Origin: Bryobacterales bacterium | GTDB taxonomy: Bacteria; Acidobacteriota; Terriglobia; Bryobacterales; Bryobacteraceae | Assembly (NCBI GenBank): GCA_963744175.1 | Contig: CAVUSQ010000002.1 | Span: forward strand, 62,178 to 126,177 | Length of the DNA stretch: 64,000 bases | Direction of reading: 5' to 3' | Shown: positions 956 through 53,977 of the stretch, in pieces | Layout: the number at the start of each line of letters is the position of its first letter | Numbering within the stretch: position 1 is the first letter of the stretch | Notes under the pieces: model-generated | The model's database searches: none | What the model was told of the DNA's origin: nothing | What the model saw: the letters and a program-made list of their open reading frames with translations, nothing else | Position numbers and translations under genes: made by a program

Positions 956-1291
956 ATGGGAGTAAAGTACACGGGCGAGATGGTGCAGGGCACGCTGGAT
1001 ATGCTGGTCCTGAAAACGTTGACCCGCGGACCGATGCACGGGTATGGGATCGCCGAGTTCATTAAACAGGTTTCTGAGGAGGTGCTGCGCGTCGAGGAAG
1101 GATCGCTCTATCCGGCGCTACATCGGCTGGAGCTCGACGGGTTCATCGATTCCGAATGGGGGCAATCGGCGAATAACCGCCGGGCGAAATATTACCGGCT
1201 GACGGCGCGGGGCCGAAAACAGTTCTCAAAGGAGGCGAGCCACTGGAAACAGCTCGCACAAGCCATCACCAGGGTAATGGAGATCACGTGA
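956..1291 (+). CDS. PadR-family transcriptional regulator
   Basis: 111-aa ORF. GTLDMLVLKTLTRGPMHGYGIAEFIKQ...EGSLYPALHRLELDGFIDSEWGQSANNRRAKYYRLT is the PadR winged-helix signature. Its stop overlaps the next gene start (GTGA at 1288-1291). Confidence 0.9.
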   Translation: MGVKYTGEMVQGTLDMLVLKTLTRGPMHGYGIAEFIKQVSEEVLRVEEGSLYPALHRLELDGFIDSEWGQSANNRRAKYYRLTARGRKQFSKEASHWKQLAQAITRVMEIT

Positions 1292-3820
1292 GATTTTTCA
1301 AAAGACTATTACACCGGCGGCGGCTGGATCGCGATCTCGACGAAGAGCTGCGGTTTCATCTCGAAATGAGCGGGAATCCGCGTGGGTTCGGTAATGCGAC
1401 GCAGATCAAAGAAGTGTGCCGGGACATGTGGAGTTTCGTGTTCTTGGAATCGATGTGGCAGGATTTTCGGTATGCGCTGCGCATGCTGGCGAAGAGTCCG
1501 GGCGTGACCACTGCGGCGATTGCCGCGCTTGCGCTGGGCATCGGGGCGAACACCACGGTCTATACCATCGTGAGTAAGGCGCTGAATTTCAACATTGGCA
1601 TCGATCATCCCGAGCGGCTGGTGCTGATCGAGATCGACCGCGCGCACATGGCGCAGACTTTCGAAGAATCTGTTCGATCCGCGGGTGTTGCGGTGCAGGT
1701 TAAATCGCTCGATCTGATCGGTGCGTTCCGGTACGGGCCGGTAAACCTAAGCGCATCGGGGGCCTTGCCGGACCGCTATTTATGTTTCGAAATTTCGGCA
1801 TCGGGATTTCAGATTATTGGACGCGCTCCCATGCTTGGACGCGTCTTCACTCCGGAAGACGAGCGCACCGGTGCGCCAGTTCTCATGCTGAGCCACGGCG
1901 TCTGGCAGGATCGCTTTGGCGGCGATCCGTCGGTGATCGGGAAAACGGTTCGCATCGATGAGGTGCCTGCGTACGATTGTCGGCGTGATGCCTCGCCGGC
2001 ATGCGGTTCCCGGAAGATACATCGCTGTGGATTCCCTTTTCGCTGGCCGCAGGCGCGCGACCTCCGATGCTGATCGGGAGGCTCGCGGGCGGCGTGAAGG
2101 TGGCGGCGGCACGCAGTGAGATTGAAGCGCTGGCTCGCAGTCTGATCGGCCCGGGTCCTAAGACTTCCGCGGGTCCGATCGTGGATGTGCGAGCCGATGA
2201 TGATGCTCTACGGCGTGTACGCGTCGCGTCCATTATTCCTGGCGCAGCTCGTCGCGGTTACATTTGTGCTGTTGATTGCGTGCGCCGATGTCGCCAATCT
2301 TCTACTGGGGCGGGCGGCGGTTCGAGCGCGGGAAATTTCAATCCGCATGGCGATCGGGGCGGGACGCGCGCGGATCCTGCGTCAGCTTCTGGTCGAAAGC
2401 GCAGTGCTGGCGATGGCCGGCGGATTTCTCGGATGGCTGGTCGCTCTGGGAGGACTGCGCTGGTTCGAGCATGCTACGGCGACGCTGCACCGGCCAGCCT
2501 GGATGGATTTTTCGATGGACGCCCGAGTGTTGATTTATTTTGCGGCCATCACGCTCGCGACCAGCGTCCTGTTTGGATTGGCTCCGGCGCTGCGGCTGGC
2601 TCGCGTGGATGTGAACCATACCATCAAGGAGGGGGGACAGGGAGCGTCGGGCGGGACACGTGGACGTTCGATTGGCAATGTTCTGGTCGCGTTCGAAATG
2701 GCGCTTGTGCGTGATTCTGCTGGCCGGCGCGGGCTTGCTGATCCGCAGCTCGCTCAATGTGTATCGCGCGCCGATTGGGCGTGGACCCGTCAAACGTCCT
2801 GACCATGCAAATTAATTTGCCGGAGGCGAAGTATCGGCGGGATGAAGACCAGGTCGCATTTCATGAACAGCTCAAAGGCAAGCTCGAATCGCTTCCCGGC
2901 GTGGAGAGTGTCGCGCTCGCGTCCGCGATGCCCACATCGGGATATTGGTATGGGTCGAGTCACTTGCGAGCTGGAAGGGTCCGGCCTTGCGATTCCGGCG
3001 GTCGAGCGAACTGACGGTCAGCGCGAATTATTTTCGCGTGATGCGCACGGAATTGCTGCGGGGGCGCGCGTTCCACGCGCGCGAAACGGATGCGGTGATG
3101 GTCAACGAGGCATTCGCGCGAGAGTTTTTCGCGGGAGAAGATCTTCTCGGGAAGCACATGCGCGTCGGGTCGGCGATGGCTCACAATCGTCGGAATCGCT
3201 GGGGATATTCAACAGGATTATCGGCGTCCGGCTGAGCGCGAGCCGTTAATATTCGCGCTTACGACGCGGGTCCTCAGCGTGCGATGTTCCTGGCTGCGCG
3301 CACGCGTGTGTCGCCCGCAGGTCTGGCCGAAGCGTTTCGACGCGAGTTGGCGAAACTGGACGAAAATCTTCCGGCATTTGACATTCGCACGCTCGAGACT
3401 CGAGATCGCACAAAATCGCTTGAACGTCGGAGCGATCTGCGTGCTGCTTGACGATTTTCGCGGGAATCGCCCTGGTGATGGCGTTTGTCGGATTGTACGC
3501 GGTGGTGGCGCACGCGGTGAGCCAGCGGACGCAGGAAATCGGAATCCGCATTGCGATGGGTGCGGCTCCGCGCGACATTCTCGGCATGGTGTTTGTGCAG
3601 GGCTTGCGGCCGGTCGCGCTGGGGCTGCTGGTGGGATTGCCCGCCGCAGTGGGCGTGGGCCGTGTGTTGAGGGTGGCGCTGGTAGGCGTTTCAACAAACG
3701 ATCCGGTGACTTTCGCGGGGGTGATCCTAACATCTGGTGGGCGCGTGTGTTCTGGGGTGCGCAATACCGGCGCGGCGCGCGGTGCGAGTGGATCCGGTGA
3801 TCGCGCTGCGGCGTGATTAG
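1288..3820 (+). pseudogene. ADOP-family (MacB_PCD + duplicated FtsX) ABC permease, heavily frameshifted
   Basis: Track fragments 1288..2073, 2001..2714, 2185..2802, 2757..3014, 2945..3235, 3279..3800 (part) and 3448..3816 tile one permease. Landmarks: LDEELRFHLEM leader, LIACADVANLLLGRA..REISIRMAIGAGR, QRTQEIGIRIAMGAAPRDIL, and a C-terminus RVDPVIALRRD* with TAG at 3818-3820. The reading frame changes at least 10 times. Confidence 0.85.
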
Positions 3821-3828
3821 CGCTCCAA

Positions 3829-5132
3829 CTACCGCAGAGCGCCGATCGTATACTCGAGCACGGCATACTGGCTCTGATAATCGTACTTTGCGCTGAGATT
3901 CTCGATCTCCGCTTGAGTCAGGTTCAACTCCGCCTGAGTCAACTCCGACGATGGAAGAGAGGCCGAGATTATAGCGGCCTCTGCGCAAGATCGAGCGCCA
4001 GTGCGGCTTGCCGGAGAAATTGAGCGGTCACGTCGATCCGTTGAAACGCGGTGATTGCGCCGCCGTAAGCCACCCGCACGTCGCGAGCAATGATCTGCTG
4101 CTGGTTGCGAAGTCGCTGGTCCGACTCCATCGCCCGCTGATGAGCTGCTTCGCGCCGCGCTGAAAACAAGTGACCGTTGAAGACGGGAATATTGACGTTC
4201 GCGGCAATGCCCTCGTATTCGGCAGGGATCGGCGCAGTGGCGGGGGTGTTGATGTAGGGAATGAATCCGCCCACGGCTTCTACGCTCACGGTGGGTCGCT
4301 TCAGATCCTTTTCAGCTTCGAAGAATTTGTAAGCAGCAGTCGCGCGAAAGACGAAGACTGGCTAGCTCGGGGCGGTTGCTGATGGCTTGTCGCGATCAGA
4401 TCGTCGGGCGTCGCCGGCGGACCGGCGGGAAGGGCTTCTTCGACGAATTGATAATTCGCAGGCTGATCGGAGCCAAGCGCGCGGCCCAATTCCGCGACCG
4501 CTCGCCTGGACGGCCTCTTGGCTCGGATCAGCAGCAGCTTGGCCTCGGAGACATTCACATCAGCGAAACTGACATCGAGCTGCGATTTGAGATTGTTTCT
4601 TGCCAGTTCAGTCACTTGATCGCTGAGGAGTCTGCCGGGCCTCGATGGTTTGTTGCGCCACCTTAATCACCGCCTGGGCGTGCAACACGTCGAAGTAGGC
4701 GCGATTGACTTGCAGCACTACGTCGTAACGCGTGGCTTGCAGAGTCTGCGTGGATGCTTGCGCCTGAAAACGCGCGCTCGCCACCAGGTTCGGAGTGCGG
4801 CCGGAATCGGTGACCAGTTGGTTGACAACAGCGCCCCGCCCGAACCGGTTGAACAGTCGGGAAGCAGTCAGTTCGCCCGCGCCGATTCGCGATAAGTCGT
4901 TAGCCTGCGATCCCGTAATTTCACCGTTAAGCGTCGGGTAATACGCCGCTCGATTGATAACAATTTGTTCGTGCGCGAAATTCGCTTCGTTCTGCGCGCC
5001 CTGGATCTGGGGATGGTTCTTGACAGCGATCGCGACTGCATCCTGTAGCGTAAGCTTCGGGGGAGATTGCGCGAAGGTCGGGCCTGCGGCCAGTGCGAAA
5101 AGGATAGGAAGCTTATTGATTCTGAGTGGCAT
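3829..5132 (-). pseudogene. TolC/OprM-like outer-membrane efflux protein, frameshifted
   Basis: Fragments 4608..5177, 4301..4615 and 3969..4289, plus a 3' piece ending LEYTIGALR* (TAG 3829-3831). Start placed at ATG 5132 (MPLRINKLPILFALAAGPTFAQ signal, AAAGGAA SD). At least 4 frame breaks. Confidence 0.75.
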
Positions 5133-8100
5133 TTCGTTCCTTTCTGCCGTAAACGAGAAGATAAGCGGCCGGAACAATGAACACGGTTAGAAGCACCGAT
5201 GAGGTCAGGCCGCCGATGATGGCGCGGGCCATGGGAGTGTACTGCTCCCCGCCCTCGCCCAGCTTCATCGCCATGGGAATCATGCCGATAATGGTTGCCA
5301 GTGACGTCATGAGAATGGGCCGCAGGCGAACTCTGCAGGCAGTGATCACGGCATCGGCAACTGACAAGCCCTGTTCTTCCAGCTTATGGGCGAAGTCGAC
5401 GATCAAGATGCTGTTGGAGTCGGCGATACCGATCAGCATCAGCACTCCCATCAGACGACATTACGTTAAGAGTCGTGTGCGTCAAAGGCAAAATAATCAG
5501 TACACCTACAAAGCCCATTGGAATCGCCAGCATGATCAGGAACGGATCGATCCAGGATTTGAATTGTGCAACCAGGATGAGGAATAAAAGAATGAATGAA
5601 ATGCCGAAGCCTAGCCCAAAACTCTTGAAAGATTCATCCATGCTATTGACCATGCCCCGCAGAGTCACGCGGATGTTGGAGGGAAGTTTAGCATCCTTTA
5701 TGGTCTCGAGGATGCCGGTGCGGAGTCTTGGCCAGATCCTCGCCAGAGGGAGTGACATAGATATCCACGACGCGCTGAATCTGATAATGATCGATTTCCG
5801 TAGGGGATTGTAGATTAACCAGTTTCACAACCGAATCGAGAGTCGTGGGGGTCTTTGCGTTGGGCGCCCGCAAAGGAATTTGCTTCAGGTCGATCAGGTT
5901 ATGAATGGCGTTTTTTCCGTGCTCGGCATACTGCACACTCAGGAAGTAATCGTTACCAGTCTTATAATCGACCCAGTAGTTAGGCGCAATCATGATGTTT
6001 GAATTCAGTGCCGTGATTACGTTATCCACCACATCTTTCTGAGTGAGTCCCAATTCCCCCGCGTGTACCCGATCGATGTCCAGTCGGACGGACGGGTAGT
6101 TCATGTCCTGCGGAATATAGATCTGATCGACACCGGGAAGCTGGCGAATGCGGCGCGCGAGATCTTGCGCAGTGGCGTAGGTCAGCTTGAGATCGCGGGT
6201 GTTAACCTGAACATCGATAGGCGCAGGCTGCCCCTGATTGAGGATCGCGTCCTGCATGGACCCGCTTTGGAAAGAACGTGCGAACATCCGGGAATTGTGC
6301 TGCCAAGTCCTTCTTGACGCGGTCCATATAAACGAAGCTGCTGCTCTCGTGTCCCTCATTCAGAGCTACTTGTACCGTGGCCATGTACATTCCAGCGTTC
6401 GTCGTATACAAGGAAGAAATATCGTTAACCACGCCGATATTCGAGAGAATCATCTTGAGATCCTTCGGGTCGATATCGTGGCGGATCAGGTCCTCTATCT
6501 TCGCCACGTAGTCGTTGGTAACCTCAATACGCGTGCCAGTGGGGACTTTGACGTTCACGGTAAACTGTCCGGCGTCGGTCTGGGGAAAGAACGCCCGGCC
6601 AAGCAGAGGATAGATCGCGAGACTCGCCACAAAGACTCCCAGGAGGAGCACCAGCGTAAGCGCCGGACGCTTTAGAGCCCGGCGGACCCATCGTTCATAC
6701 AGATCGAGCAGGCCGTTAAATTGGCGATTGAACCAGGCATTAAAACGGGCGCCCCAGGACTTGTCTTCAGGTGCGTCGGAATGTGACTCGCTTTCGCCGT
6801 GCGGCACGGCTTTCAAGAAACGGGAGCAGAACAGCGGGATCACTGTCATCGCGACCACAAACGACGCCAGCAGCGCCAGGCAGAAGGACAGCGCAAGCGC
6901 GGAGAACAGAAACTTACTGACACCGAACAACAGGGTCACCGGGAAGAAGTCGACTACATCGACCAGAGTCGCAGCCAGCACAGCCAGATTGACCTCGGCG
7001 CCGCCCATCGCTGCTGCGACGGCCGGCGTCGATCCCATTTCCAAATGACGATAGATGTTTTCGAGGGATATGACTGAGTTATCGATCACGCGAGAGAAGG
7101 CTAGCGCGAGACCGCTGAGGATCATCGTGTTGATGGTGCTTCCCATCATGAAGAGAACTACAAATGTAGCGAGCGCGGAAATCGGAATCGACAGCAACAC
7201 CGCGCCCGTGGCTCGCATGCTGCCCAGGAACACCAGAATCATGACGCTGGTCAGCACCAGACCGATAACACCTTCATGAAAGACCGTGTTTAATGCCTGT
7301 TTGACAAAGACGGATTGATCGAAGACGATATCGGTCTTCAACTGTGCCGGAAGATCGAACAGATGCTGGACCAAGCCCCGGACGTCGTTCACCACCTGAA
7401 TCGTATTGCTGTCGCCGCCCGATTTCATGATCGGAATATCGGCGGACTTCTGCCCGTCAATACGTACGATGTTGTATTGCAATTGACTGGCGTCTTTGGC
7501 TTCGCCTACGTCTCCGACAGTGACCCAGCGGGTCCCGACGGTTTTGATCGGGCACGTTGTCTAAGTCCTCGACATTTTCCACCAGGCTATTGGAATAGAC
7601 GTAATAGTCGCTGTTGCCGATCTTGACATCTCCGGCGGGCAGGATGAGATTGCTGTTGTTCACCGCGTCGACCACATCCATCACACTCATTTGCCGGGAA
7701 AGCAGTTTGTAAGGATCGACGTAGATCATCGCCTGCCGGTACTTGCCGCCGAACACCGCCGGGATTTCAGAACCTTTCACTACAGCGATTTGATTGCGTA
7801 TTTGAAACTGGGCCAGATCGTGAAGCTGGGTTTCATTCAGTCCTTCGCCCTTGACGGTAACCAGGCACACGGGAAGACTGGAGGCGTCGGATTTCAGTAC
7901 CAGTGGAGGCAAAGTTCCGGGCGGCAGGCGTTTCAAATCGGCGAGTGCAAGATTCGATAACTGGGTCACGTCCGCATCCGCGTCCGTTCCAGGTTGAAAG
8001 TAAGCCTTGATAATGCTCACGCCGAGCAGGGAGCGGGACTCCATGTGATCCATACCACTTGCCTGGGTGAAGAAGCGCTCCAGCGGATTGGTAATATCGA

Positions 8101-8275
8101 CTTCAATGTCTTGCGGCGGCATCCCGCTATAAAAGGTCGCCACGACCACTACCGGCAAGTTAATCGGCGGAAACAGATCGACCGGCATCCGCGACATGGC
8201 GTTGATACCGATGACGGCCAGAGCCAGACAGATCACGACAATGAAATAGGGATTGCGGATTGAAAAACCTGGCAT
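5113..8275 (-). pseudogene. RND (AcrB/HAE1-type) efflux pump inner-membrane subunit, frameshifted
   Basis: Fragments 7457..8275, 6202..7482, 5688..6359, 5384..5758 and 5113..5451 tile an AcrB-like protein (MPGFSIRNPYFIVVICLALAVIGINAMSRMPVDLFPPINLPVV...). At least 4 frame breaks, one at a CCC/GGG run near 7556. Confidence 0.9.
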
Positions 8276-8288
8276 GGGCGATTCCTCG

Positions 8289-9623
8289 CTAGTGCTGCTC
8301 TTCGGGGCTGTCGATATTGCATCAGGTCGAGCGATTTGGGCTGAACCACCTGGCCGGCTTTCAGACTGCTCCGGTCACTGACCACCACCATGTCACCTTC
8401 CTTCAATCCGGAGAGTACTTCCGCATCGGTCGCAGTCTGGATACCCAACACAACGGAGCGGATTTCTATCTTGTTGGACGCATCGACCACGTCCACCGTC
8501 GTCCCATTCGCGGTGTGGTCCACGGCCTGAAGAGGTACCGCCAGCGCATCCTGCTTTATGCTCCAGTTGAATCGTCGCATCGGCGTAAAGCCCCGGCAGC
8601 AGCACGCGCTGTGGATTCGGGACATCCACTTCCGTATGCATCGTGCGGGTGTCTTCCCGTACATCGACGGAGAAGCGCGCTATTTTCCCCGGGAAGGTCC
8701 GATCGAGCGATGAGACCTTCACGCTCACCGGATCGCCGACGTGAATGTATTTGACATAGGTCTCCGGCACCGGAATCACCAGGCGAAAAAGATCGTCCTC
8801 GGAGAGCCGGACGATCGGCATCGCCTGGGTGCTGGAACTGGTTCCGGCCTGCACCAACGCTCCGAGATTGGCGAACCGCTGGGTGATCACTCCGGCGAAA
8901 GGCGCGGTAATTTTGGTATAGTCGAACAAATCCTGATCGTGCTCCCGCTTGGCTTGTGGCAGCGCCAGCGCGCTTTGGGCTGATTGCAGATTCGACTCGC
9001 GAGCCTTCCACTTGCGCGGCCGACGCCAAGGCTCTCGCCTTCAGAATCATCCACTTCCTGCTGGGCGACCAATCCGGGCTTCGATTTCGCGACGTTGTTC
9101 AGTCGATCGAACTGTAGCTGCATCACTTTGTGCTGCGCTTCGACGCGGCCCAATTCGTTTTGGGCGTGCGTAATCTGCTCGCTCGCGTTCTTGATCGCGG
9201 CGTCGTCCTGCCGCAATTGCGACTGCAGTTCGGGAATCTCCAGAGTGGCAATGAGTTGACCCTTCTGCACGTGGGTTCCGTAGTCGACGGGAGATCCTTG
9301 ATATAGCCGGACTCTTTGGCATAGACATCGATTTCCTGGAACGGGACAAGCTCGGAAGACAGCGTCAAGGTCCTCGCCAGTGGCTTCCTGCCGATCTTGA
9401 CAACGCCGACGGAAACCTCAATCGAGCCACCAGCACCGGGATCCCTGGCTTGCACTTTTTCTGTGTTGCCGCAGGAGACCACGACACTCGCCGCAAGGAC
9501 GATTAGGCCAAAGCACACTTTCTTATTTCGGCTCAACGAGGCCTCCAAGGAAGATCGCAGTTCCCTGGCCATTGCCGCAGGCGCTTCGCCAACTCCTCCA
9601 ACGAGAACCCTGAAGAACGGCAA
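8289..9623 (-). pseudogene. RND efflux periplasmic adaptor (membrane fusion protein), frameshifted
   Basis: Fragments 9123..9623, 8887..9270, 8556..9050 (part), 8393..8929 and 8233..8664. Lipoprotein-like N-terminus LAASVVVSCGN. Adaptor motifs: TLEIPELQSQLRQDDAAIKNA (coiled coil) and FDYTKITAPFAGVITQRFANLGALV. Probable end ...PEEQH* (TAG 8289-8291). At least 5 frame breaks. The true start may be the internal Met at 9572. Confidence 0.8.
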
Positions 9624-10265
9624 AAATCAGTCAAGCTCTCGCTCCTCGGCGAGTATCTTGGTAGCCTCTGCCGGTATATCCGCGACAAGCTCCAGCGGAA
9701 CGTTGAGGACCCCATGGCGGTCGCCGTGAAGCAAATCCCCGGAACGAATTTTCAATCCGCCAATCTCGACCGGTTCGCCGAAATCGATGATGTGGGCATA
9801 GGAGTGAGAAACCGAGAGATTCCCGCGAAAACAATTGAAAATTCAAAGCTTTTATCGCCGGAAGGTCGCGCACGGCTCCATTGGTGACGCATCCCACGCA
9901 ATCCAGAGCAAGGGCGATCGAGGCATGAATTTCACCTACAAATGCTCCTAGCCCCGGTTTACCGTCGGCGTCCTGCACCACGATTACCCTTGGCTTGGGT
10001 AGAGATGCCACATAGTGTCCACCAATCCATGCGGTCATAGTAACAGCGATGGGTCATCGGCGGAGACACGGTTCGAATTCGTCCCGTCGCGGCGTAACCG
10101 ACCATCGGAGGCAGATCCGGGAACCGGCAGCGCACCGCGCCGGGAAATGAATCCCTCATTTCGCAGCCGGGCGCTCAGTCTTTCGATCGCGTTCGAGACG
10201 GTACAGGTATCGAATGCTCGCAAACTTTCTAGATCCACGGCAGAGAGACCTTTGCGCGAACTCAT
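9533..10265 (-). pseudogene. RraA-family (RraA / HMG-CHA aldolase-like) protein, frameshifted
   Basis: Fragments 10035..10265 (DLESLRAFDTCTVSNAIERL), 9959..10159, 9631..10038 (VVQDADGKPGLGAFVGEIHASIALALDCVGCVTNGAVRDL) and 9533..9715 tile one RraA-like protein. At least 3 frame breaks. The 3' end is uncertain. Confidence 0.55.
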
Positions 10266-10452: not shown

Positions 10453-11895
10453 ATGAGTAAAATCGACGTGGCGAATTCCGAGCAAGCCAGCCGGGTACTT
10501 TTCAGAAGTTCCCGCATGGCTCTGGTCCTCGGATTTGGAGGTCTCATATCGATAATGGCTCTGGCTGGAATCGACGCGCTGCGATCGCTGCAGCAGTTTC
10601 GCAGGAGCGACGACCAGATCAGACGGCATTATCTTTCTCAAAACCATGTCCTGAACGACATTCGTTCCGATGTACATGTTTCGGGCACTTATGTCCGGGA
10701 CTACCTGCTGGAGCCTGACCGCCAGCGGGGCGAAGCCTATCGGAAAGGTCTCGAAGACTTGAGAAAGCATATGGAGTCGGCGCTTGAATCCTACGGCCAG
10801 CAAGTGGCACCCCCTGAAATGGAGCACTATAAAGCGCTCCGTACAAAGCTGACCGACTACTGGGAAATCCTGACGCCGATCTTCACATGGGACACGGCGG
10901 AGCGGCGGCGCTCCGGCTACGCCTTTCTGCGGGACGAGGTGTTCCCGCGCCGTCAGAATATGCTGGCCATCGCCGATCAGATCGCCAACATCAACGAGCA
11001 GCAATTGACTTCTGGAAACAACCAGGTGGTCGGCCTCCTGCTGAAATTTCAAGCTCGCCTCGTGATAACGTTAGTCGCGGCGCTGGCCCTCGGATTCGGA
11101 TTGGCCGCACTCACGATGTACAGAATTCTGAAACTCGAGGCGCAGGTACATACGCGGTTTGAGGAGGCGACCGAGGCCCGGAGTGAACTGAAGGACTTGT
11201 CGGCGCGTCTGGTCCAGGCCCAGGAAATGGAGCGGCGCGCGCTCTCCCGCGAGCTACATGATGAGGTTGGCCAGTCGCTTTCAGCAGTTTTGATAGAGCT
11301 GCGGAATTTATCGGTTGGACTCGCGACCAAACCCAAAGAGCTTTTGAGCGAACATGTCGAAACCATAAAGACTTTGGTGGAGGGAATGATCCGGGTGGTT
11401 CGTAATATGGCGCTGCTTCTAAGGCCCTCCATGTTAGATGATTTGGGCTTGATTCCGGCCCTGAAATGGCAGGCGCGTGAAGTTTCCAGGCGCACCTCTA
11501 TTGACGCGAGCGTTTCGGCTGAGTTAATTTCCGATGACTTTCCGGATGAGTATAAAACCTGTATCTATCGGGTAGTTCAAGAAGCGCTTCACAACGTTTC
11601 GAGTCATGCTCACGCCGGCAGTGTCCGCATCCGCGTACAGCAGGAACGAGACCGGCTGAGTCTCTTGATCCAGGACGATGGCCAAGGCTTTGACAGCAAG
11701 CAGGTGAAAGGACTGGGATTACTGGGAATCCAAGAACGCGTCACTCGATTAGGCGGGACTTGCACCGTACACTCAACGCCGGGGAGCGGAACGATACTCG
11801 CCATAGAGCTACCGTTTAGTGGCGCACCATTCAACTCTAAGACAAGCAGTATGAGTGAGGAAATGCGTGAAACAAATTCGCATCCTGTTGGCTGA
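10453..11895 (+). CDS. Sensor histidine kinase, HisKA_3 (NarX/LiaS-class) with periplasmic sensor region
   Basis: 480 aa. Two hydrophobic segments flank a ~170-aa region, followed by a coiled coil. H-box LSRELHDEVGQSLSAV; HATPase_c motifs DDGQGFD and GLGLLGIQERV. SD GAGGAAAG before ATG 10453. Confidence 0.9.
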   Translation: MSKIDVANSEQASRVLFRSSRMALVLGFGGLISIMALAGIDALRSLQQFRRSDDQIRRHYLSQNHVLNDIRSDVHVSGTYVRDYLLEPDRQRGEAYRKGLEDLRKHMESALESYGQQVAPPEMEHYKALRTKLTDYWEILTPIFTWDTAERRRSGYAFLRDEVFPRRQNMLAIADQIANINEQQLTSGNNQVVGLLLKFQARLVITLVAALALGFGLAALTMYRILKLEAQVHTRFEEATEARSELKDLSARLVQAQEMERRALSRELHDEVGQSLSAVLIELRNLSVGLATKPKELLSEHVETIKTLVEGMIRVVRNMALLLRPSMLDDLGLIPALKWQAREVSRRTSIDASVSAELISDDFPDEYKTCIYRVVQEALHNVSSHAHAGSVRIRVQQERDRLSLLIQDDGQGFDSKQVKGLGLLGIQERVTRLGGTCTVHSTPGSGTILAIELPFSGAPFNSKTSSMSEEMRETNSHPVG

Positions 11896-12517
11896 CGATC
11901 ACAACGTAATGCGCAGAGGTCTCCGGCTATTGCTCGAAAGCCAGCCGGAGTTCACAGTGGTGGCCGAAGCCGCCGATGGCAGACAAGCGGTCGAACAGGC
12001 GGAGGCGACTAATCCGGATGTGGTGGTGCTCGATATCGCAATGCCGAATCTCAACGGGATCGAGGCCGCTCAGCGCATTATCTCCCAGCGGCCTGGCACC
12101 TCGATTATTTTTCTGAGTATGCATTCGGATGAGGGCTACGTTCTTCGTGCCCTCAAAGTGGGGGCGAAAGGCTATTTGCTGAAGGATTCCGCGGAAGGGG
12201 ATCTCATTGAAGCGATCACTATGGTTCATCAGGGGAAGACATTTTTCAGTCGCGAAATCGGCCGAATGCTGGTTGAGGATTATGTACGGGAAATCAGAAC
12301 GCGTGGGGTCGAGGATAGCTACGAGCTGCTAACTTCACGCGAGCGCGAGATCTTTCAGTTATTAGCCGAAGGCAAGTCGAATAAAGAGATCGCAGGAGCC
12401 TTGAACCTTAGTGCACACACGGTCGAGACACATCGCCGAAATCTGCAGGATAAGCTTAATCTTCATAGCTTCGCCGAACTGATTCTCTACGCAGTGCGGA
12501 AGCGGATTATCTCGTAA
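11867..12517 (+). CDS. NarL/FixJ-family response regulator (REC + LuxR-type HTH)
   Basis: IRILLADDHNVMRRGL...DVVVLDIAMPNLNGIE (REC) and LTSREREIFQLLAEGKSNKEIAGALNLSAHTVETHRRNL (LuxR HTH). The track start 11855 is GTG; I prefer the in-frame GTG at 11867, preceded by GAGGAAA. It overlaps the kinase 3' end. Confidence 0.9.
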   Translation: MKQIRILLADDHNVMRRGLRLLLESQPEFTVVAEAADGRQAVEQAEATNPDVVVLDIAMPNLNGIEAAQRIISQRPGTSIIFLSMHSDEGYVLRALKVGAKGYLLKDSAEGDLIEAITMVHQGKTFFSREIGRMLVEDYVREIRTRGVEDSYELLTSREREIFQLLAEGKSNKEIAGALNLSAHTVETHRRNLQDKLNLHSFAELILYAVRKRIIS

Positions 12518-12588: not shown

Positions 12589-12879
12589 CTAACCTTTTAG
12601 CGCGCGCTCGAGCCGGCTATGCTGCAGCTCGTGGAGAAGGCGCATCACGTTGTATGCACTCAGTTCGACCATCAGTCGCGTGATTTTTTCGTGTTGCTCA
12701 TCGTTTAGATCGCCTTCAACGGATTTCATTGCCGCGACCACGCTCGACTGTTGCTTTTCGAGCTCGGTATCATCGATAACACCATCCGCCATGGCGTCCA
12801 CGAATGCCGACAGGTTTTGTACCTGCTCGTCAATGATCGGCATGTGTGTCTTCTCGTCAAACCAACTTATTCTTGTCAT
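12589..12879 (-). CDS. Small acidic helical protein, last gene of the PspA-ABC-AAA operon
   Basis: 96 aa, MTRISWFDEKTHMPIIDEQVQNLSAFVDAMADGVIDDTELEKQQ... Its ATG (12879-12877) overlaps the AAA gene stop (ATGA). No family recognised. Confidence 0.7.
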   Translation of the reverse strand: MTRISWFDEKTHMPIIDEQVQNLSAFVDAMADGVIDDTELEKQQSSVVAAMKSVEGDLNDEQHEKITRLMVELSAYNVMRLLHELQHSRLERALKG

Positions 12880-14624
12880 AAAATGCCTTTCAATTCGAAA
12901 AAACGGTGTTGCAGACGCTCACGTCCGCCCGGCTCCTGAACTTGCTTGCGGAACGCTTCGGGAAGGAACTCGGCGTCAGTGCATTCGAGCATGGCGGCGA
13001 TCTCCTGCATCTCCTTCTCCAGTCCATCGAGGGATGGAAGAAAGCCCGCCAGCTCGCGTTCGAGCGCCAGCTTGCCGATTCCGGATTCCCCGAGCAAGCG
13101 TCCGCGGCGCGCGGCTCTGGTTACAATTCCCTCAATGTCCGCGCCTGAGAGTCGGCCGGTTAAAGGAACATCGGGAATCTCATCGGGAGTCAACTTGATG
13201 CCGGCCTTTCGGCCCATGGCTTGGAACATCGACCGCAATTCTTCCGCTTGCGTGGGATAAAACAGAGGGATGTGAACCTCCGCACGGCCCTGCCGCTTCA
13301 GGTCGATGGGTAAAAGGTCGGGGCGGGATGTCAGCAGCATCCACAAAATTTTCCCACGATAGCGAGTGTCGCCCATTTGCGCGGCGATTAGGGAAAAGAC
13401 ACGGCTGGAGGTGCCTGAATCGCCCTCCTGCTCGCGATTGCCCAGCGCGGCGTCGGCTTCGTCGATGACCACGACCACGGGCCCCATGGCTCGTAATACG
13501 CCGAGGACGCGCTCCAGGTTCCCCTCCGTTTCGCCGACATACTTGGAGCGGAAATTCTTAAGAACGAGGCAGGGCGCACCCATTTCACCGGCCATGCATT
13601 GCGCCAGAAACGTTTTTCCCGTGCCCACGGGACCGCAGACCAGATAACCCATCGGCAGCGTTTCTGTGTCGCCCCGCTGAAGCAGTTGCGCGTCCTCGCG
13701 AAGGCGCTGCTTCACGGAGGCGTGACCTACCAGGACATCAGTATTCCACTTCGGCTCCATGAATTCGAGCAAGCCGCGGCATTGGCGCTCGATCAGTTCC
13801 TTCTTGAGTCCGCGCATGCGGGGTCCGTCCAGGCGGTGACCAGGTTCGAAGGCAGATTGAATCAGGACGTTGATATCCACGCATGAAATGCCCGCAGTGA
13901 GGCGCGTTAATTCGGCTTCCGAATAATCGGAAGCGAGGTGGAGATCGCGGCCTTCCAACGCATAATGTATAAAATGTGCGCGTGCGGCTTCATCGGGCAT
14001 CGGGACTTCGATGCTGGCGACATAAGGATTCGAAGTGACGCGCTCACTTAGGGCAGCGGCGCTCTCGTCCATCAAAACCATCGCCATGTTGAGCCGTTTC
14101 ACATGCGGACTGGCGGCCCAGTTAAGAAGGGTCACGACCTGTTGGGATGCGGCCGGACTCAGGCGGCCGGGCTCACCGCTGGGCAGGAGAAACGAGGCGT
14201 GGTCGATCAGAATTGCGGCGCTCACGCTTTCCTCACCCGCCATGATGTTGTTCTGCACGAATCGATCGAGGAGCGCAAACGCGGTGGAAGGGTCCTTTCT
14301 GGCCAACGCGAGGTCGCCAACTTTTTCGTTGGCGCGAACCACCATTTCCTTGAGCCGCACGCCGTCACGCCCCGCAAAAGCCCGCAGCCCGCGCGCCAGA
14401 TCGTAATAGAGCACCAGATCCCAGCGGCCGAATACCTGCTCCGCCAGAAAATCGGAAGCGGCTCCATAAGAAGATCCGTCGGCGGACAAGGGAACCAGAT
14501 CGTGCACGTTGCCGTGAACAACAAACAGCGAGGTGGAGCCGGAAAAATACAGCTCCGATAGCTCAGCGGCCCACGACGGGAACCAGGCGGGAATTTTGCC
14601 GTGTTTGTGTTCGGCGGGCGTCAT
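12876..14624 (-). CDS. Classical-clade AAA+ ATPase with degenerate N-terminal ATPase-like half
   Basis: C-terminal module: Walker A GPVGTGKT, pore-loop-like SKYVGETE, Walker B VVVIDEAD, SRH-like LLTSRPDLLPIDLKRQGRAE. N-terminal ~330 aa has no P-loop (LFVVHGNVHDL) but a Walker-B-like AILIDHASF. Start placed at ATG 14624 (MTPAEHKHGKIPAWF), which overlaps the upstream stop (ATGA). The Arg-rich track extension to 14768 is rejected. Confidence 0.85.
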   Translation of the reverse strand: MTPAEHKHGKIPAWFPSWAAELSELYFSGSTSLFVVHGNVHDLVPLSADGSSYGAASDFLAEQVFGRWDLVLYYDLARGLRAFAGRDGVRLKEMVVRANEKVGDLALARKDPSTAFALLDRFVQNNIMAGEESVSAAILIDHASFLLPSGEPGRLSPAASQQVVTLLNWAASPHVKRLNMAMVLMDESAAALSERVTSNPYVASIEVPMPDEAARAHFIHYALEGRDLHLASDYSEAELTRLTAGISCVDINVLIQSAFEPGHRLDGPRMRGLKKELIERQCRGLLEFMEPKWNTDVLVGHASVKQRLREDAQLLQRGDTETLPMGYLVCGPVGTGKTFLAQCMAGEMGAPCLVLKNFRSKYVGETEGNLERVLGVLRAMGPVVVVIDEADAALGNREQEGDSGTSSRVFSLIAAQMGDTRYRGKILWMLLTSRPDLLPIDLKRQGRAEVHIPLFYPTQAEELRSMFQAMGRKAGIKLTPDEIPDVPLTGRLSGADIEGIVTRAARRGRLLGESGIGKLALERELAGFLPSLDGLEKEMQEIAAMLECTDAEFLPEAFRKQVQEPGGRERLQHRFFELKGIL

Positions 14625-15473
14625 TGCGCGACCTTTCGCCAGTCGGCATCGAGGATGGCGGGCGGCTCTTGCATTTGATCCACCACGCCAGTAATGTGCT
14701 GCAGTTCGCGGATTGCCGCTTCGGTGGATTGGACGCTGGCGGCGACGCCTTCGATCTGGCTGGTCCATGCGTCGGGATCCTGGCGATTGACGCTCGATTC
14801 GACCAGCGCTTGAATCTTGGCTTCAATGCGGTCCAGCTCCAGGCGGACGAACTCGGCGTTTTCGCTGGCCTTTTTGTAGTTTTCCAGGCGCAATTCCTGG
14901 GCAGCAACGCTGTCCTCCAAAGAGTGTTTGATACGTTCTTCCTGCGCTCCCAAGCCGGCGATTTTTGCTTTTGTATTTTCGATTCGCGAGCGGATTTCGG
15001 CGTCGTTGGTGGAATGGAGGAAACGATCCAGCCCCTGTTGAGATACGAGCAGGCGCAGAAAAATCCATAGCAAGCGATCGAGGGCGGGAGTGCTCAGGTC
15101 TTCTGACGACGAAGCTTGCTGGCCGCTGACGCCGCGGGCGATCGATTTCATTTCCAGGCAACGCGAGCGCAGTGCGTCGAATCGCTGACGGGATTCCGGC
15201 GGGAGAGAATTCATGATTTCCGCGAGCGATTCGCCTCCGGACGTACCAGGCTGCAATTCCTTATGGACCTGCGCGTCGATCGCGTCGCGGAATTTCGGGC
15301 GGGAAACCAAGCCCTGCCAGGTAAGCGATCTCGCCGGCCAATACCAGTGGGATCGTCGCATCGGGCCACGGGGAAATTGCCGCTGCTGCCGCCGCACCGA
15401 AGAAAAACAGGAGGTTCCAGCGGTAGAGGAAGGCTCGCTTCAAGTACTCCGCGATGCCCGCGGACGTTTTCAC
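14621..15473 (-). CDS. Membrane-anchored coiled-coil protein (one frame break near 15305)
   Basis: The N-terminal hydrophobic part (frame of ORF 15261..15488: KTSAGIAEYLKRAFLYRWNLLFFFGAAAAAAISPWPDATIPLVLAGEIAYLAGL) continues in the frame of ORF 14621..15397 (VSRPKFRDAIDAQ... long heptad-like C-terminus). The switch sits at a GGG/CCC run. The GTG start at 15473 overlaps the ABC ATPase stop (GTGA). Confidence 0.65.
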
Positions 15474-16276
15474 TTGCGGACCTCGCACTGCTCCACGATG
15501 TCGCGAATGGCGAACACGGTTTCGTTGAAATGAGCTTCACGCTGCATCTGGCGGGCCGGGCGGTCGGGGCTGGGAAGCTCCATTTCCTTAATGATAGTGC
15601 CAGGAGAGCCGGACAAAATGTAGATGCGGTCGCCCAGGAAAACGGCTTCCTCCACCGAATGCGTCACGAAGAAAACGGTGGCTTCCTGCTCTCGCCAAAG
15701 GCCGATTAGCAGATCCTGCATGTTAAGGCGAGTGGCGGGATCGAGTGCGCCGAACGGCTCGTCCATCAAAATGATGTGCGGCGAGAGGATCAATGTCCGC
15801 GCGATCGCAACCCGCTGGCGCATGCCTCCCGACAATTGATGCGGGAATTTCTGCGCGTCCCGCAAAGGGTTAAGACCCACTTTGCCAATCCACTCCCGTG
15901 CCCGCGCGTCGCGTTCCTTGCGCGATACGCCGGCGCATTCCAGGCCGAAGGAGATATTGTCGAGCACGGTGCGATTGTCAAACGAAGTGTAGTCCTGAAA
16001 GACCATGCCGCGGTCGGGTCCAGGACCTTCTACCGATTTGCCCATCACCTTTACCGTTCCGGTGGTCGCCGGAAATTGCGGGCGCAAGCCTGCGATAAGA
16101 CGCAGGATGGTGGACTTGCCGGACCCCGAGGGCCCTAATAATGACACAAACTCGCCGCGCTCCGGCTTGTTGGGAACTTGAAACGTGATGTCGCGGATTG
16201 CAGGGGTGACTCCGCCATCGGGAGCCTCGAAGTCCTTGCTTACTCCTTTGAATTCGACGATCAGTTCTTCGGGCAC
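15470..16276 (-). CDS. ABC transporter ATP-binding protein (NitT/TauT, SsuB/TauB/NrtD-like)
   Basis: Walker A GPSGSGKST, signature LSGGMRQR, Walker B ILMDEPFGALD, H-loop FFVTHS. Start placed at GTG 16276, 2 nt after the permease stop, rather than the track start 16324. Confidence 0.9.
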   Translation of the reverse strand: MPEELIVEFKGVSKDFEAPDGGVTPAIRDITFQVPNKPERGEFVSLLGPSGSGKSTILRLIAGLRPQFPATTGTVKVMGKSVEGPGPDRGMVFQDYTSFDNRTVLDNISFGLECAGVSRKERDARAREWIGKVGLNPLRDAQKFPHQLSGGMRQRVAIARTLILSPHIILMDEPFGALDPATRLNMQDLLIGLWREQEATVFFVTHSVEEAVFLGDRIYILSGSPGTIIKEMELPSPDRPARQMQREAHFNETVFAIRDIVEQCEVRK

Positions 16277-16278
16277 GC

Positions 16279-17106
16279 TCAGTCTGAGTCCTCTCGATAA
16301 GGAAAGAGGCCATGTTGGACCCATCCGAGAAAGCGGTCGATTCCGTACGCCAGGGCGCCGATCACAATCAGAATTAGAATGATGTGCTCGGACATGCCTC
16401 GTCGCTGACTGGTCGATAGAAGGTACCCTAAGCCATGCTCGGCGTTAATTAATTCGGCGAGCATGATGTAGCCGAAAGCTAACCCGAATAGCGAGCGGAG
16501 GCTTTTATAAATGTCGGGGAGCGCGAGCGGCACGAGAACCTTTCGGATCACTTGCCACCGTGACGCGCCTAGAGTTGTCGCGGTCTCCACATAGCGGTCC
16601 GGAACCGATGTGATGGCGTGGACCGAGTCGGAATATACGAACGGCACGCAAGCGATGAAAATGAACATCACTTTCTGCGTTTCCTCGATGCCGAACCAGA
16701 GAATGGTTAAGGGGATCAGCGCTGCCACAGGGATATTGCGCGCGAATAGTGCCACCGGCATAACCGCGGCTTCGAGCACCCGCCACGATCCCGCGGCGAT
16801 CCCCAGAGGGACACCTACCGCAATCGCCAAACCAAATCCGGCAAGCACTCGGCGCAGCGTTGCGATGATGCTATCGAGCAAGCCTCGCTCATACCATAGA
16901 GGTTTGAAACTTCGCCCTACTTCGAGAGGTGACGGTAGAATTACCGGCGAGACCCAGCGCTGTTCGGGCGTCGCGCCGAACGTCGCGAGGAACCAAAGCG
17001 CGAAGATCATTCCGACCGCGCCTGCTCCAATCAGCCATCCAGTGCGCGGGGCGGGTGGAATGCGAAGATCGAAAAGGCCGGGGCTTTTCGCATCGGAGCG
17101 GGCCAT
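16279..17106 (-). CDS. ABC transporter permease (BPD_transp_1; SsuC/TauC/NrtB-like)
   Basis: 275 aa and multi-TM. EAA-like loop ETATTLGASRWQVIRKVLVPLALPDI. Its start lies 1 nt after the binding-protein stop. Confidence 0.9.
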   Translation of the reverse strand: MARSDAKSPGLFDLRIPPAPRTGWLIGAGAVGMIFALWFLATFGATPEQRWVSPVILPSPLEVGRSFKPLWYERGLLDSIIATLRRVLAGFGLAIAVGVPLGIAAGSWRVLEAAVMPVALFARNIPVAALIPLTILWFGIEETQKVMFIFIACVPFVYSDSVHAITSVPDRYVETATTLGASRWQVIRKVLVPLALPDIYKSLRSLFGLAFGYIMLAELINAEHGLGYLLSTSQRRGMSEHIILILIVIGALAYGIDRFLGWVQHGLFPYREDSD

Positions 17107-17107
17107 T

Positions 17108-18685
17108 TTACTTGGTAGCTTCCAACGGGTAGACCTTCACTTCTACGCGGCGATTCTTGGCCTGGTTCAAAGGATCGTTCGGATCCGCGGGGCGAGCCCA
17201 CCCCATTCCCGATACGCTGAACTGATTCGGCTGAAGCGTGGGGAACTTTTTGAGAATCGCTTCCTTCACCGCGTTAGCCCGGTTTCCGGAAAGCTCCTGC
17301 ACAGCCGATTCAGGCACGCGATCCTTCATCGAGGAATCCGAGTGACCTTCTATAATGATGCGCGCAGCGCCGAACTGTCCGGCCATTTTGCCGATCTCCT
17401 CCACCACAAACTTTGCATTCGGGTCGTAGAGTTGCTCAGTGGCCTTGCCGTCTACGGTTTCAGTAACCTGCTTCGAGAGGTCCCACGAGTTTGGATAAAA
17501 GTGGATCACGACAGTCTTGGTAAGGATCTCATCGGACTCGCCTTGAATCGCCGCAGCCGTGGCGGGAGCGAACTGGACGGCGTATTCATTTTTCTGGCTC
17601 GAATATTTCGCTTCCTTCCCGAGCTTCTGCAAAACGCTGAAGTCCATCACCTGATCGAACTCCGTCTTGTCGGAAACCGCTCCAATGCGTTTGTACAAGT
17701 AGTACGCCGTGTTCCAAGTCCGCTCAAAATTCGTTGGATTATTCTGATTCAGAAAAAATTCCTGATTCTCGGCCCAATTCGTGGAATGCGCGTCGCCCTG
17801 CATACTGAGCGCGTCCGCCTCGGGAATGGAGTACCCAGCCGCCATCAGCTTAGCCGCGGCAGCCTTGCTGTTCTGATCCTTCAACGATTCCATGCCATCG
17901 AAAATCCCGCGCACCAGGCCTTCAATAATGTCGGGATTGTCCTTCGCGAAGTCGGCTCGAGCAAACCAGATGTCGGCGATCAGCTTGTTGGCGGTCGTCG
18001 TGGTCACCAGCATACGATTACCTTTGACCTTCGCCAGGTTGTAAATATCCGGCGACCAGCTCACAGCTCCGGCGATTTTCTTATCGGCGTTGAAAGCAGC
18101 CGCGGCCTGGAAAGCGTCCTGGGTGAACTTGAAGTTCACCTCCGATGGCTGCACGCCCCCATTGATCAGTGCGTTGAGCACGAAGAAATGGGACGGCGAG
18201 TTCTGCGCGAGAACAATAGTCTTGCCGCGCAAATCGGCGATACTCTTGACGGTATCGCGCACCACAATTCCATCGCCGCCATTGGACCAATCCACCTGCT
18301 GATAAATTCGCGGCATCACGCGTGAATCTTTGTGCAGCGCCTCCATGAACAGAGGAACCATATCCAAAGTCCCCCAGCCGACGTGGACATTGCCTGCCGC
18401 GTAAGCGTCGCGCATCGCCACCGGATCGTCGATCAGGATGAGCTCAACTTTGAAGTCCTTACCGCCGGATGTTTTCCAGACCTTGCCGGCCTTGAATCCA
18501 TTGTTGGCCAGGATGATCGGCGCCCAACCCGCCCAAACATTGATCGCAAAGCGAACAGTCCGGTCCGCCAGCGGCTTGTAACTTGAAATACCCTGCACCG
18601 GAGGAAGCTTCGCCGCCGGAACATATTTATACTCTTTCGCCGTCGTGATCCCGCTGGTATCGGGAGCTTCGGTCGTGGTGGTCAT
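17108..18685 (-). CDS. NMT1/SsuA-like substrate-binding protein fused to a C-terminal OmpA-like domain
   Basis: 525 aa. The N-terminal two-thirds resemble nitrate/sulfonate/bicarbonate-type binding proteins (RFAINVWAGWAPIILANNGF...). The C-terminus carries OmpA_C-like motifs (IIIEGHSDSS, LSGNRANAVKEAIL, NRRVEVKVY). This ORF has no signal peptide or TM segment. Confidence 0.85.
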   Translation of the reverse strand: MTTTTEAPDTSGITTAKEYKYVPAAKLPPVQGISSYKPLADRTVRFAINVWAGWAPIILANNGFKAGKVWKTSGGKDFKVELILIDDPVAMRDAYAAGNVHVGWGTLDMVPLFMEALHKDSRVMPRIYQQVDWSNGGDGIVVRDTVKSIADLRGKTIVLAQNSPSHFFVLNALINGGVQPSEVNFKFTQDAFQAAAAFNADKKIAGAVSWSPDIYNLAKVKGNRMLVTTTTANKLIADIWFARADFAKDNPDIIEGLVRGIFDGMESLKDQNSKAAAAKLMAAGYSIPEADALSMQGDAHSTNWAENQEFFLNQNNPTNFERTWNTAYYLYKRIGAVSDKTEFDQVMDFSVLQKLGKEAKYSSQKNEYAVQFAPATAAAIQGESDEILTKTVVIHFYPNSWDLSKQVTETVDGKATEQLYDPNAKFVVEEIGKMAGQFGAARIIIEGHSDSSMKDRVPESAVQELSGNRANAVKEAILKKFPTLQPNQFSVSGMGWARPADPNDPLNQAKNRRVEVKVYPLEATK

Positions 18686-18686
18686 C

Positions 18687-18818
18687 TCATCTTTTGCTGA
18701 CCTTGACGCTCTTTACTCCGGGCAGCGCGCCCAAACGCCACAGCGCTACGCCGACCAGAGCCAACACGACAGCCAGAACCGCCAAATAAAACGCAGGCTT
18801 CGGATTTCCGCTAGCCAT
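18687..18818 (-). CDS. 43-aa single-TM mini-protein, or the detached membrane anchor of the binding protein
   Basis: Below the track size cut-off. MASGNPKPAFYLAVLAVVLALVGVALWRLGALPGVKSVKVSKR*, with GAGGTG SD upstream. The stop TGA lies 1 nt before the binding-protein ATG. Removing one A from the AAAA run at the 3' end would fuse both ORFs in frame. Confidence 0.45.
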   Translation of the reverse strand: MASGNPKPAFYLAVLAVVLALVGVALWRLGALPGVKSVKVSKR

Positions 18819-18853
18819 ATAAAATTTTCACCTCAATTGTGTTTGCGAACGGC

Positions 18854-19618
18854 CTAGTTGTGGGACGTCTGCGTAGTCTTCTCGTCGACTACCGCCGGTC
18901 CCAGGTCTTTGGTGGAATCGGCCAGCTTCGTCGTTTCCGGCGAACGCAATCCCAACTCCGCCTCAAACTGCGTGAGCGCATCTTCGGCCATCGCCTTCTC
19001 GACTCTCTCCTCGGCTTGGATCGACTCCATGCCTTCCTGCGACAAATCGGCCGCGACCCGCACCTTCGCGCGGTTCTTGTCGATCTTGCCCTGGATCACC
19101 TCTTCGATCTTGCCGAAATCGGTGGTGATGTCCATGTTGAAGGACTGCGCCAGTTTCGCCACCTCGGCTTCCGCCGAACTCATTTTCAACTCGGCATCGT
19201 ACTTCTGAATTTTCTCGCGAACGTCGCCCAGCTTCTTAGTCGCATGCTGGATCTTCTTCAGGTTGTTCCCATATGCCTCCTCATGCATGGTGAGCTGCTG
19301 CTCATTCGCGGCAAGATCCTTCTTCGCCTTCTGCAACTCCAAGGCAAATTTCGCCGCGGCATCGCGCTCCCCCGCTTTCAGATACGTCTTGGTTTGCGTC
19401 TCCAGTTTCTGGACGTGATCCCTGCCCACGGCCACTTGACGCGAGACGCGCTCCACCAACGCCCGATAAGTCTCCAACCCCTGCCGCCCGTCCTTCATCT
19501 GCTCGACAGCGGTATCGTATTCATACTGCATCTGCGCAATCGGATCAGCTTCCCAGAAAACATTGGCGATCTTATTCAATTGCGCACGAAATGCGCTCCA
19601 GAATTTCCCCAAAATCAC
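18854..19618 (-). CDS. pspA: PspA/IM30/Vipp1-family protein (ESCRT-III superfamily)
   Basis: 254 aa with a GTG start and AAGAAGG SD. The N-terminus FWSAFRAQLNKIANVFWEADPIAQMQYEYDTAVEQM matches the PspA_IM30 helix-0/helix-1 pattern, followed by long coiled-coil helices. Confidence 0.85.
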   Translation of the reverse strand: MILGKFWSAFRAQLNKIANVFWEADPIAQMQYEYDTAVEQMKDGRQGLETYRALVERVSRQVAVGRDHVQKLETQTKTYLKAGERDAAAKFALELQKAKKDLAANEQQLTMHEEAYGNNLKKIQHATKKLGDVREKIQKYDAELKMSSAEAEVAKLAQSFNMDITTDFGKIEEVIQGKIDKNRAKVRVAADLSQEGMESIQAEERVEKAMAEDALTQFEAELGLRSPETTKLADSTKDLGPAVVDEKTTQTSHN

Positions 19619-25728: not shown

Positions 25729-25776
25729 CTTCTACATGTTAATAATTAACGTGTAGAAGCGCAAGGTGTGAGCTGG

Positions 25777-26349: not shown

Positions 26350-26378
26350 CTTGTTTACCTTATCACTCAGCCAATGCC

Positions 26379-53958: not shown

Positions 53959-53977
53959 TCCGATCAGGAGAGCGTAT

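Follow-up and report, generated by a model that had tools for sequence, protein, structure and literature searches.

Our analysis suggests that the block of five broken genes at positions 1288-10265 of the window (the whole 64,000-nucleotide stretch of DNA analyzed here) probably reflects patchy consensus error left uncorrected in an assembly of the long-read type, rather than gene decay or a real biological feature; we put the probability of this reading at roughly 93%. Under it, the deposited sequence of the block would carry a spurious single extra base every ~300 nt, as part of an assembly-wide population of errors that would cluster in blocks of roughly read length (median, 17 kb). Such patches would presumably be sites that few reads supported or that polishing did not reach. 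The assembly itself would be of long-read origin, with local read depth or polishing likely setting the patch boundaries. In the organism, the ADOP permease, the tripartite RND efflux system, and the RraA-like gene are most likely intact.

Frameshift-aware protein-to-DNA alignment against intact orthologues at congener loci L003, L004, L006, L009, and L010 placed 29 firm frame breaks in the block, plus 2 doubtful ones, at a density of ~3.3 per kb, which bears out the description of five genes shredded by "~25 or more" breaks in an earlier, sequence-only reading of this DNA. Across the five genes, 27 of the 29 firm breaks are extra single bases and 2 are missing bases, and ~3,000 aligned codons hold no in-frame stop. 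The first gene, a probable ADOP-family duplicated permease (MacB_PCD plus FtsX) on the forward strand at 1288 to ~3811, has 12 firm breaks, of which 11 are extra bases and one is a missing base (at 1966, 1994, 2190, 2704, ~2770, 2946, 3007, 3176, 3255, 3404, 3447, and 3733), as well as the doubtful compensating pair at ~1654/1694, which lies within an open frame. It aligns end to end with its orthologues L009 (875 aa) and L010 (829 aa) at 56-58% identity, without internal in-frame stops. The TIGR03434 ADOP scores of 767 and 761 bits (cut-off, 622) belong to L009 and L010, respectively; within the broken window copy, the fragment at 1288-2073 matches MacB_PCD in a profile search.

The remaining four genes lie on the reverse strand. 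The TolC-like outer-membrane efflux protein (~3834 to 5177) has five breaks (4631, 4390, 4338, 3980, and 3946), every one a single extra base on which three references agree, and it retains 69-74% identity to those references with no stops; its orthologue carries Pfam OEP, and a TIGR01844 match scored 151 bits, below the 225 cut-off of that model. The RND efflux permease of the AcrB/AcrD/AcrF family (~5116 to 8275) has four breaks, again all single extra bases (7552, 6273, 5726, and 5455), and 1052 of its codons align with the G013 orthologue at 89% amino acid identity without a stop. A MAFFT nucleotide alignment with five orthologues recovered each of these four breaks as one extra column in the window, independently of the frameshift-aware aligner. 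Orthologue L003 covers positions 1-1020 of the ~1020-position ACR_tran profile (PF00873) at 698 bits, and the window fragment at 6202-7482 matches profile positions 271-654; taken with the 1052-codon alignment, these matches show that the window gene spans the whole AcrB/AcrD/AcrF profile.

For the RND periplasmic adaptor (membrane-fusion protein; ~8308 to 9623), references L003 and L006 gave three to four breaks, consisting of a missing base at 9290 and extra bases at ~9030, 9005, and 8557. The gene is thus broken, as the sequence-only reading had held, although its count of at least five breaks was slightly high. L004 was rejected as an adaptor reference: its 530-aa ORF has an upstream open extension overlapping the RraA-like gene, and its apparent breaks at 9826-9514 were not counted for the adaptor because they belong to that neighbor. 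The adaptor orthologue matches HlyD_D23/HlyD_3 and, at 166 bits, TIGR01730 RND_mfp (cut-off, 94.9). Finally, the RraA-like/aldolase-family gene (~9536 to 10265) has four breaks (10142, 10015, 9822, and 9635), all single extra bases, with 66-75% identity to three references and no stops; its orthologue matches Pfam RraA-like at 71.7 bits.

The genes on either side are intact, in keeping with the earlier account of the flanks. To the left on the forward strand, a PadR regulator (956 to 1291) occupies a single open frame and covers positions 1-74 of the 75 in the PadR profile. To the right, and likewise on the forward strand, a histidine kinase (10453-11895) has 4HB_MCP_1, HisKA_3, and HATPase_c in one frame, and a LuxR-type response regulator (11855-12517) has Response_reg and GerE in one frame. 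These genes form the limits of the error-rich patch. About 50 kb of the window carries open frames of 817-1103 codons, including the 900- and 1096-codon frames that had been pointed out at 22751-32142. The window also holds another error patch, smaller than the first, in a gene for a PQQ-dependent dehydrogenase on the reverse strand at ~32350-34038. Two of its ORFs match, in succession, positions 1-100 and 158-334 of the 595-position PQQ profile. Compared with four paralogue or orthologue references (53-58% identity), it has ~5 breaks, at 33645, 33008, 32769, 32756, and 32539, of which the last three were placed by L030, the sole reference reaching past 32811.

Breaks of the same kind occur across the whole assembly and affect genes that no cell could spare, as expected of an assembly artefact. 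We sampled 17 loci of 20 kb each from congener G003, yielding 217 reference proteins. For 100 of them, the best tblastn hit in the genome under study (G000) reached at least 55% identity, and 90 of those passed thresholds of at least 60% identity and at least 85% coverage. Among these 90 orthologue pairs, 61 were broken; the 36,264 codons of the sample held 187 extra-base events, 32 missing-base events, and 5 stops, for a rate of 2.0 events per kb. With intact congeners as a control, the same aligner called 4 events over 13,759 codons (0.1 per kb). The broken genes include rpoB (1 extra base, at 91.6% identity), rpoD (3 events), and dnaG (6 events), together with those for PNPase and RNase E/G and with ctaD, plsX, mnmG, serA, and mtaB. 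The assembly comprises 7.09 Mb in 11 contigs at a completeness of 60.15%, compared with 90-100% for congeners of 4-8.5 Mb.

These events are unevenly distributed. Under a uniform (Poisson) rate, 11 of the 90 genes would be expected to be unbroken, whereas 29 were (chi-square 225, 89 df), which upholds the earlier judgment that randomly spread error does not fit. A de novo codon-model scan of the whole genome found 5,529 of 9,901 coding segments to be 3'-truncated, at 0.78 per kb; the corresponding figures at the G003 control loci were 78 of 312 and 0.23 per kb. Two-state segmentation delimited ~120 error-rich patches over ~40% of the genome, both rough figures, as its rates and switch probability were chosen by the analyst; one of these patches is window 1823-9823. 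Error-rich patches reach 141 kb at most (median, 17 kb), and the cleaner blocks 284 kb (median, 24 kb). Counted against the reference proteins, events number 3.0 per kb inside the patches (48 genes) and 0.96 per kb outside them, where 20 of 42 genes are broken. Patchiness is an assembly-wide property and is not peculiar to this locus, and the density of the block matches that of the other error-rich patches, so the block is not special. The uniqueness that the sequence-only reading implied for it is contradicted by this match, by the 4.9% of 9-kb genome windows whose score in the de novo scan equals or exceeds that of the block, and by the broken PQQ gene; the option it had raised of a low-quality assembly patch or an error-rich read source gains support from the like insertion breaks in 61 of the 90 genes and from the ~120 patches. 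No link to contig ends was seen, the error-rich fraction being 0.30 within 20 kb of the ends and 0.40 overall. As a measure of fragmentation, the share of each 8-kb window covered by ORFs of 200 aa or more was dropped: at 58% GC, long spurious frames hide the breaks and leave it too insensitive.

The sharp alternation of error-rich and cleaner blocks also leaves some room, in our view perhaps one chance in a few, for an artefact of another kind, in which reads of coexisting strains were merged, or raw long reads filled the spaces between accurate short-read contigs, and the boundaries mark a change of data source instead of depth. The long open frames over about 50 kb of the window are consistent with such a change, as is a weak tendency for events to be commoner in GC-richer sequence, and G or C accounts for 157 of the 214 skipped bases (60% expected), which would fit a coverage bias of short reads. 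The difference in GC between error-rich patches (59.4%) and the remainder (57.8%) is weak, however (rho 0.26), and may partly be detection bias, and we rejected GC content as the cause of the patches on these grounds. The "clean" class still has 0.96 events per kb and almost half of its genes broken, and no region looks to be of pure short-read quality. A merger of strains should, in addition, have left substitutions and longer indels, which are not conspicuous, and stops number only 5 in the 36,264 codons.

True recent pseudogenization, in which the efflux module, the ADOP permease, and the RraA-like gene were inactivated in the organism and are gathering frameshifts, was another option of the sequence-only reading, and we consider it very unlikely. 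It would account for dense breaks bounded by intact flanking genes, and the loss of one efflux copy could be tolerated given the many paralogues (several matches per genome). Decaying genomes, such as those of host-restricted lineages, contain many pseudogenes, with runs of neighboring genes bearing several frameshifts each, and the block resembles them in having such a run. Bacterial mutation is, however, deletion-biased, and its indels concentrate in homopolymers. A cluster of pseudogenes would be expected to show mixed lesions and relaxed constraint; the block instead shows 27 extra bases to 2 missing ones, with no deletion bias and no nonsense codons. Nor are its indels concentrated in homopolymers, as had been suggested for checking: among the 27 extra-base breaks, only 5 have a run of at least three no more than 3 nt away, and none is near a run of at least four. 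Genome-wide, 34% of events (n = 187) have a run of at least three within 3 nt, compared with 35% of random positions, and there is no enrichment. The earlier remark that some breaks sit at short G/C runs applies to the one at 7552, where the window has CCC and the orthologues CC, but not to the breaks in general.

Divergence from relatives argues against decay in the same way. The comparison of dN with dS proposed in the sequence-only reading was possible in part, as dS is saturated (pS 0.70-0.77) and dN alone is usable; dN to G013 is 0.07-0.21, not above that of intact orthologue pairs, and for the RND gene it is 0.074, compared with 0.10-0.12 between intact pairs. Single-base indels accompanied by neither nonsense nor excess missense change are what an assembly artefact would leave. 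Genome-wide, broken genes are 76.7% identical to G003 at the amino acid level, and unbroken genes 74.5%. A pseudogene cluster should, moreover, be confined to dispensable genes, yet rpoB, rpoD, and dnaG are broken alike at the same density, as are the 61 of 90 genes, and no living cell could truly have such breaks.

Nor are the break positions shared with the aligned relatives. Five congeners (G013, G003, G005, G017, and G006) have the operon intact, with the same gene content and order as the block, although G013, which served as an intact operon reference, has a completeness of only 65%. In two low-completeness congeners, G015 (73%) and G014 (79%), the same operon has many extra-base breaks, and the RND gene has 16 and 4 events, respectively, at residues other than the 242, 668, 850, and 940 (reference numbering) of the window. 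A tripartite RND operon of adaptor, AcrB-type permease, and TolC-type channel beside an ADOP permease is thus the arrangement in these congeners too, and the only difference from their loci is the broken reading frames of the deposited sequence, which is nothing biological.

Two further readings take the extra bases to be real. The first, to which we give only the slightest credence, is that a soil bacterium not yet cultured, or relic DNA left by a dead population of it, carries ~20-kb blocks of insertion-biased, homopolymer-independent mutagenesis free of substitutions, a process that is not known to have been described. The second, that the cell copes with real extra bases by programmed frameshifting, transcript slippage, or editing, draws its sole support from the good protein conservation in the corrected frame and is hardly credible: there is no strong 3- or 4-mer enrichment that would betray a slippery site or methylation motif (the best, CGC, is found in 57% of contexts versus 44%), no homopolymer link, and no conservation of position among relatives, and ~2 events per kb over two thirds of the sampled genes exceeds, to our knowledge, any known recoding system.

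Patchy consensus error, the reading we prefer, has close parallels. Gene-fragmenting indel errors in long-read assemblies were reportedly described by Watson and Warr in Nat Biotechnol in 2019. As with PacBio or Nanopore indel errors, genes here fall into neighboring pieces that lie in different frames, essential genes are hit, the protein is conserved once the frame is followed, and marker-gene completeness is depressed. Two reports describe single-base indels in long-read assemblies as truncating genes, essential ones included (ARAMIS, PMC8574707; Kastor, PMC12007338), and they describe the indels of finished long-read assemblies as mostly homopolymer-associated, with G/C deletions in GC-rich genomes. 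Unlike the errors so described (PMC8574707, PMC12007338), 187 of the 219 events here are insertions, without homopolymer enrichment. They are also clustered in blocks of ~17-24 kb. This profile would resemble stochastic read error surviving at low support more than systematic base-calling error.

The block has no biological significance, and its significance is practical only. The assembly represents its species in a collection with one genome per species, and the coding sequence that we sampled from it has ~2 spurious frameshifts per kb; gene calls, pseudogene counts, completeness estimates, and findings of "broken genes" that derive from it should be discounted, and those from G014 and G015 probably likewise. 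For annotation, the efflux module and the ADOP permease are probably best treated as intact genes. The insertion-only, homopolymer-independent, patchy profile may also help to spot like artefacts elsewhere.

The five-gene efflux block between window positions 1288 and 10265 is broken across reading frames, as the sequence-only reading had claimed. Nothing but short overlapping frames appears there in the 1-12 kb open reading frame (ORF) list, intact frames lie on either side, and the flanking genes for PadR (956-1291), a histidine kinase (10453-11895) and a response regulator (11855-12517) are intact. Intact orthologues and the window fragments together identify the genes as an ADOP permease (TIGR03434), an RND pump (ACR_tran), an adaptor (RND_mfp/HlyD), a TolC-like protein (OEP/TolC) and an RraA-like protein. 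A DNA search of 30 relatives showed that several congeners share the block, with nucleotide identities of 70-77%. In the congeneric genomes G013, G003, G005, G017 and G006, the adaptor, the RND pump and the outer-membrane protein are each encoded by one uninterrupted frame. With congener proteins as tblastn queries, every window gene was retrieved as colinear pieces chained across changing frames. Breaks, i.e., single extra or missing bases relative to an orthologue, were called with our own protein-to-DNA aligner, which permitted one-base insertions and deletions and was run with two to three references per gene. This yielded 29 firm breaks and 2 doubtful ones: 4 in the RND pump, 5 in the TolC-like gene, 3-4 in the adaptor, 4 in the RraA-like gene and 12 in the ADOP permease, which also holds the doubtful compensating pair at ~1654/1694, inside an open frame. 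The earlier counts generally stood, save that those for the adaptor were slightly too high. In a MAFFT nucleotide alignment with five orthologues, the window sequence also showed each of the four RND breaks as one additional column, and, as a control, the aligner reported only 4 events in 13,759 codons (0.1 per kb) of the efflux block of intact congeners.

Breakage extends well beyond the efflux genes. The source assembly (G000, with the window at C2:62178-126177) comprises 7,091,401 bases, free of N and at 57-60% GC, in 11 contigs of which the largest is 2.23 Mb. Its marker-gene completeness is 60.15% (contamination 0.64%), whereas most congeners of 4-8.5 Mb reach 90-100%; such low completeness in a large and highly contiguous assembly was a first hint that broken genes might be an assembly-wide property. 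Seventeen 20-kb stretches of G003 (96% complete) supplied 217 non-overlapping reference ORFs of at least 200 aa. For 100 of these, the best tblastn match in G000 reached 55% identity or more, and 90 of the 100 also passed at least 60% identity and at least 85% coverage; the other 117 and 10 were left out for lack of a confident orthologue. Across the 90 G000 genes (36,264 codons), extra and missing bases numbered 187 and 32, respectively (2.0 events per kb), and there were 5 stops; 61 genes were broken. Affected genes included those for the primary sigma factor RpoD (3 events), primase DnaG (6), PNPase (3), RNase E/G (16), cytochrome oxidase subunit I (7), PlsX (6), MnmG (7), SerA (8) and MtaB (9). 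Further, a single extra base at C1:636839 divides rpoB (C1:633451-637808, minus strand) between a 1177-aa and a 357-aa frame; the gene has no stops and is 91.6% identical to the G003 copy, a single 1446-aa frame. Because a living cell cannot have such genes broken, the breaks are mistakes in the deposited sequence.

Natural decay of the block fares poorly against the character of its breaks. Frameshift-aware alignment found no in-frame stop codon in any of the five genes, and the RND pump retains 89% amino-acid identity to its G013 orthologue over 1052 codons. dN to G013 (0.074-0.21) does not exceed values for intact orthologue pairs, while dS is saturated, which leaves the dN/dS ratio uninformative. 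The absence of nonsense codons and the unraised dN thus disfavor decay. So do the predominance of single extra bases (27 of 29 firm breaks, against 2 missing bases) and their independence of homopolymers in the block (only 5 of 27 lay no more than 3 nt from a run of at least 3, and none of 27 near a run of at least 4), given that bacterial indels are deletion-biased and slippage-prone. On these grounds, and with essential genes likewise broken, we rejected pseudogenization.

The two congeners that match the block most closely, G015 (73% complete; L002, C82:1-7100) and G014 (79% complete, 5 contigs; L005, C2:465966-473493), have efflux operons that are likewise full of single-base events, mostly extra bases. 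Their RND genes carry 16 and 4 events, respectively, at residues different from those in the window, which indicates that the breaks are not inherited and instead accompany low-completeness assemblies. One event, at reference residue 696 of the RND pump, is common to both relatives.

Within G000, the errors are patchy: 29 of the 90 sampled genes were unbroken, relative to 11 expected at a uniform rate (chi-square 225, 89 df). A de novo scan, using a dicodon model trained on G000's own long frames and a seven-state Viterbi decoding, scored coding segments ending at least 8 codons ahead of their in-frame stop as truncated; these made up 5,529 of 9,901 segments in G000 (0.78 per kb), compared with 78 of 312 in G003 control loci (0.23 per kb). 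Two-state segmentation of 1-kb bins, at rates of our own choosing, yielded rough figures: ~40% of the genome fell into 120 error-rich patches (median 17 kb, mean 24 kb, maximum 141 kb). Reference-based densities agreed, at 3.0 events per kb inside patches (48 genes) and 0.96 outside (42 genes). Window positions 1823-9823 form one such patch, and the remainder to the window end was classed as cleaner. At least as many truncated segments as in the block (16 in 9 kb) occur in 4.9% of 9-kb windows genome-wide, and the block's density of ~3.3 breaks per kb is, next to the 3.0 inside patches, ordinary for a bad patch. The block is one among many error-rich stretches in a probably poorly polished assembly.

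Excerpts from two published reports describe how single-base indels truncate genes in long-read assemblies, mostly at homopolymers and as G/C deletions in GC-rich genomes (PMC8574707; PMC12007338). In contrast, the G000 profile is one of insertions, independent of homopolymers and grouped in blocks of read-length size. As these three features would fit stochastic read error, we infer that the breaks were probably left where few reads or no polishing backed the consensus. No sequence motif stood out at G000 events, CGC-containing contexts being mildly enriched (57% versus 44%), and error-rich patches were not associated with contig ends. At extra-base events, G or C accounted for 157 of the 214 skipped bases (60% expected), with a positional uncertainty of a few bases in the aligner's placement of each event, and patches were slightly higher in GC (59.4% versus 57.8%; rho 0.26 per kb), which may partly reflect easier detection. 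Together, the two excesses could stem from detection bias or from a dependence of errors or polishing on base composition.

The cleaner class is not error-free, as a PQQ-dependent dehydrogenase gene (window ~32350-34038, minus strand), adjoined by a cytochrome c gene (34035-34826), carries ~5 single-base breaks; the part of the window classed as cleaner thus contains a second, small error patch. Also in this cleaner part, at 12589-19618 and 53029-60052, the de novo scan flagged only isolated events (16316, 58073 and 60191), a rate near the background of the control genome. Just before the 900-codon ORF, a 164-aa ORF (22227-22721, minus strand) matches positions 2-103 of the 153-position IS1595-type DDE transposase profile and, since only part of the profile is matched, is possibly a truncated insertion-sequence remnant.
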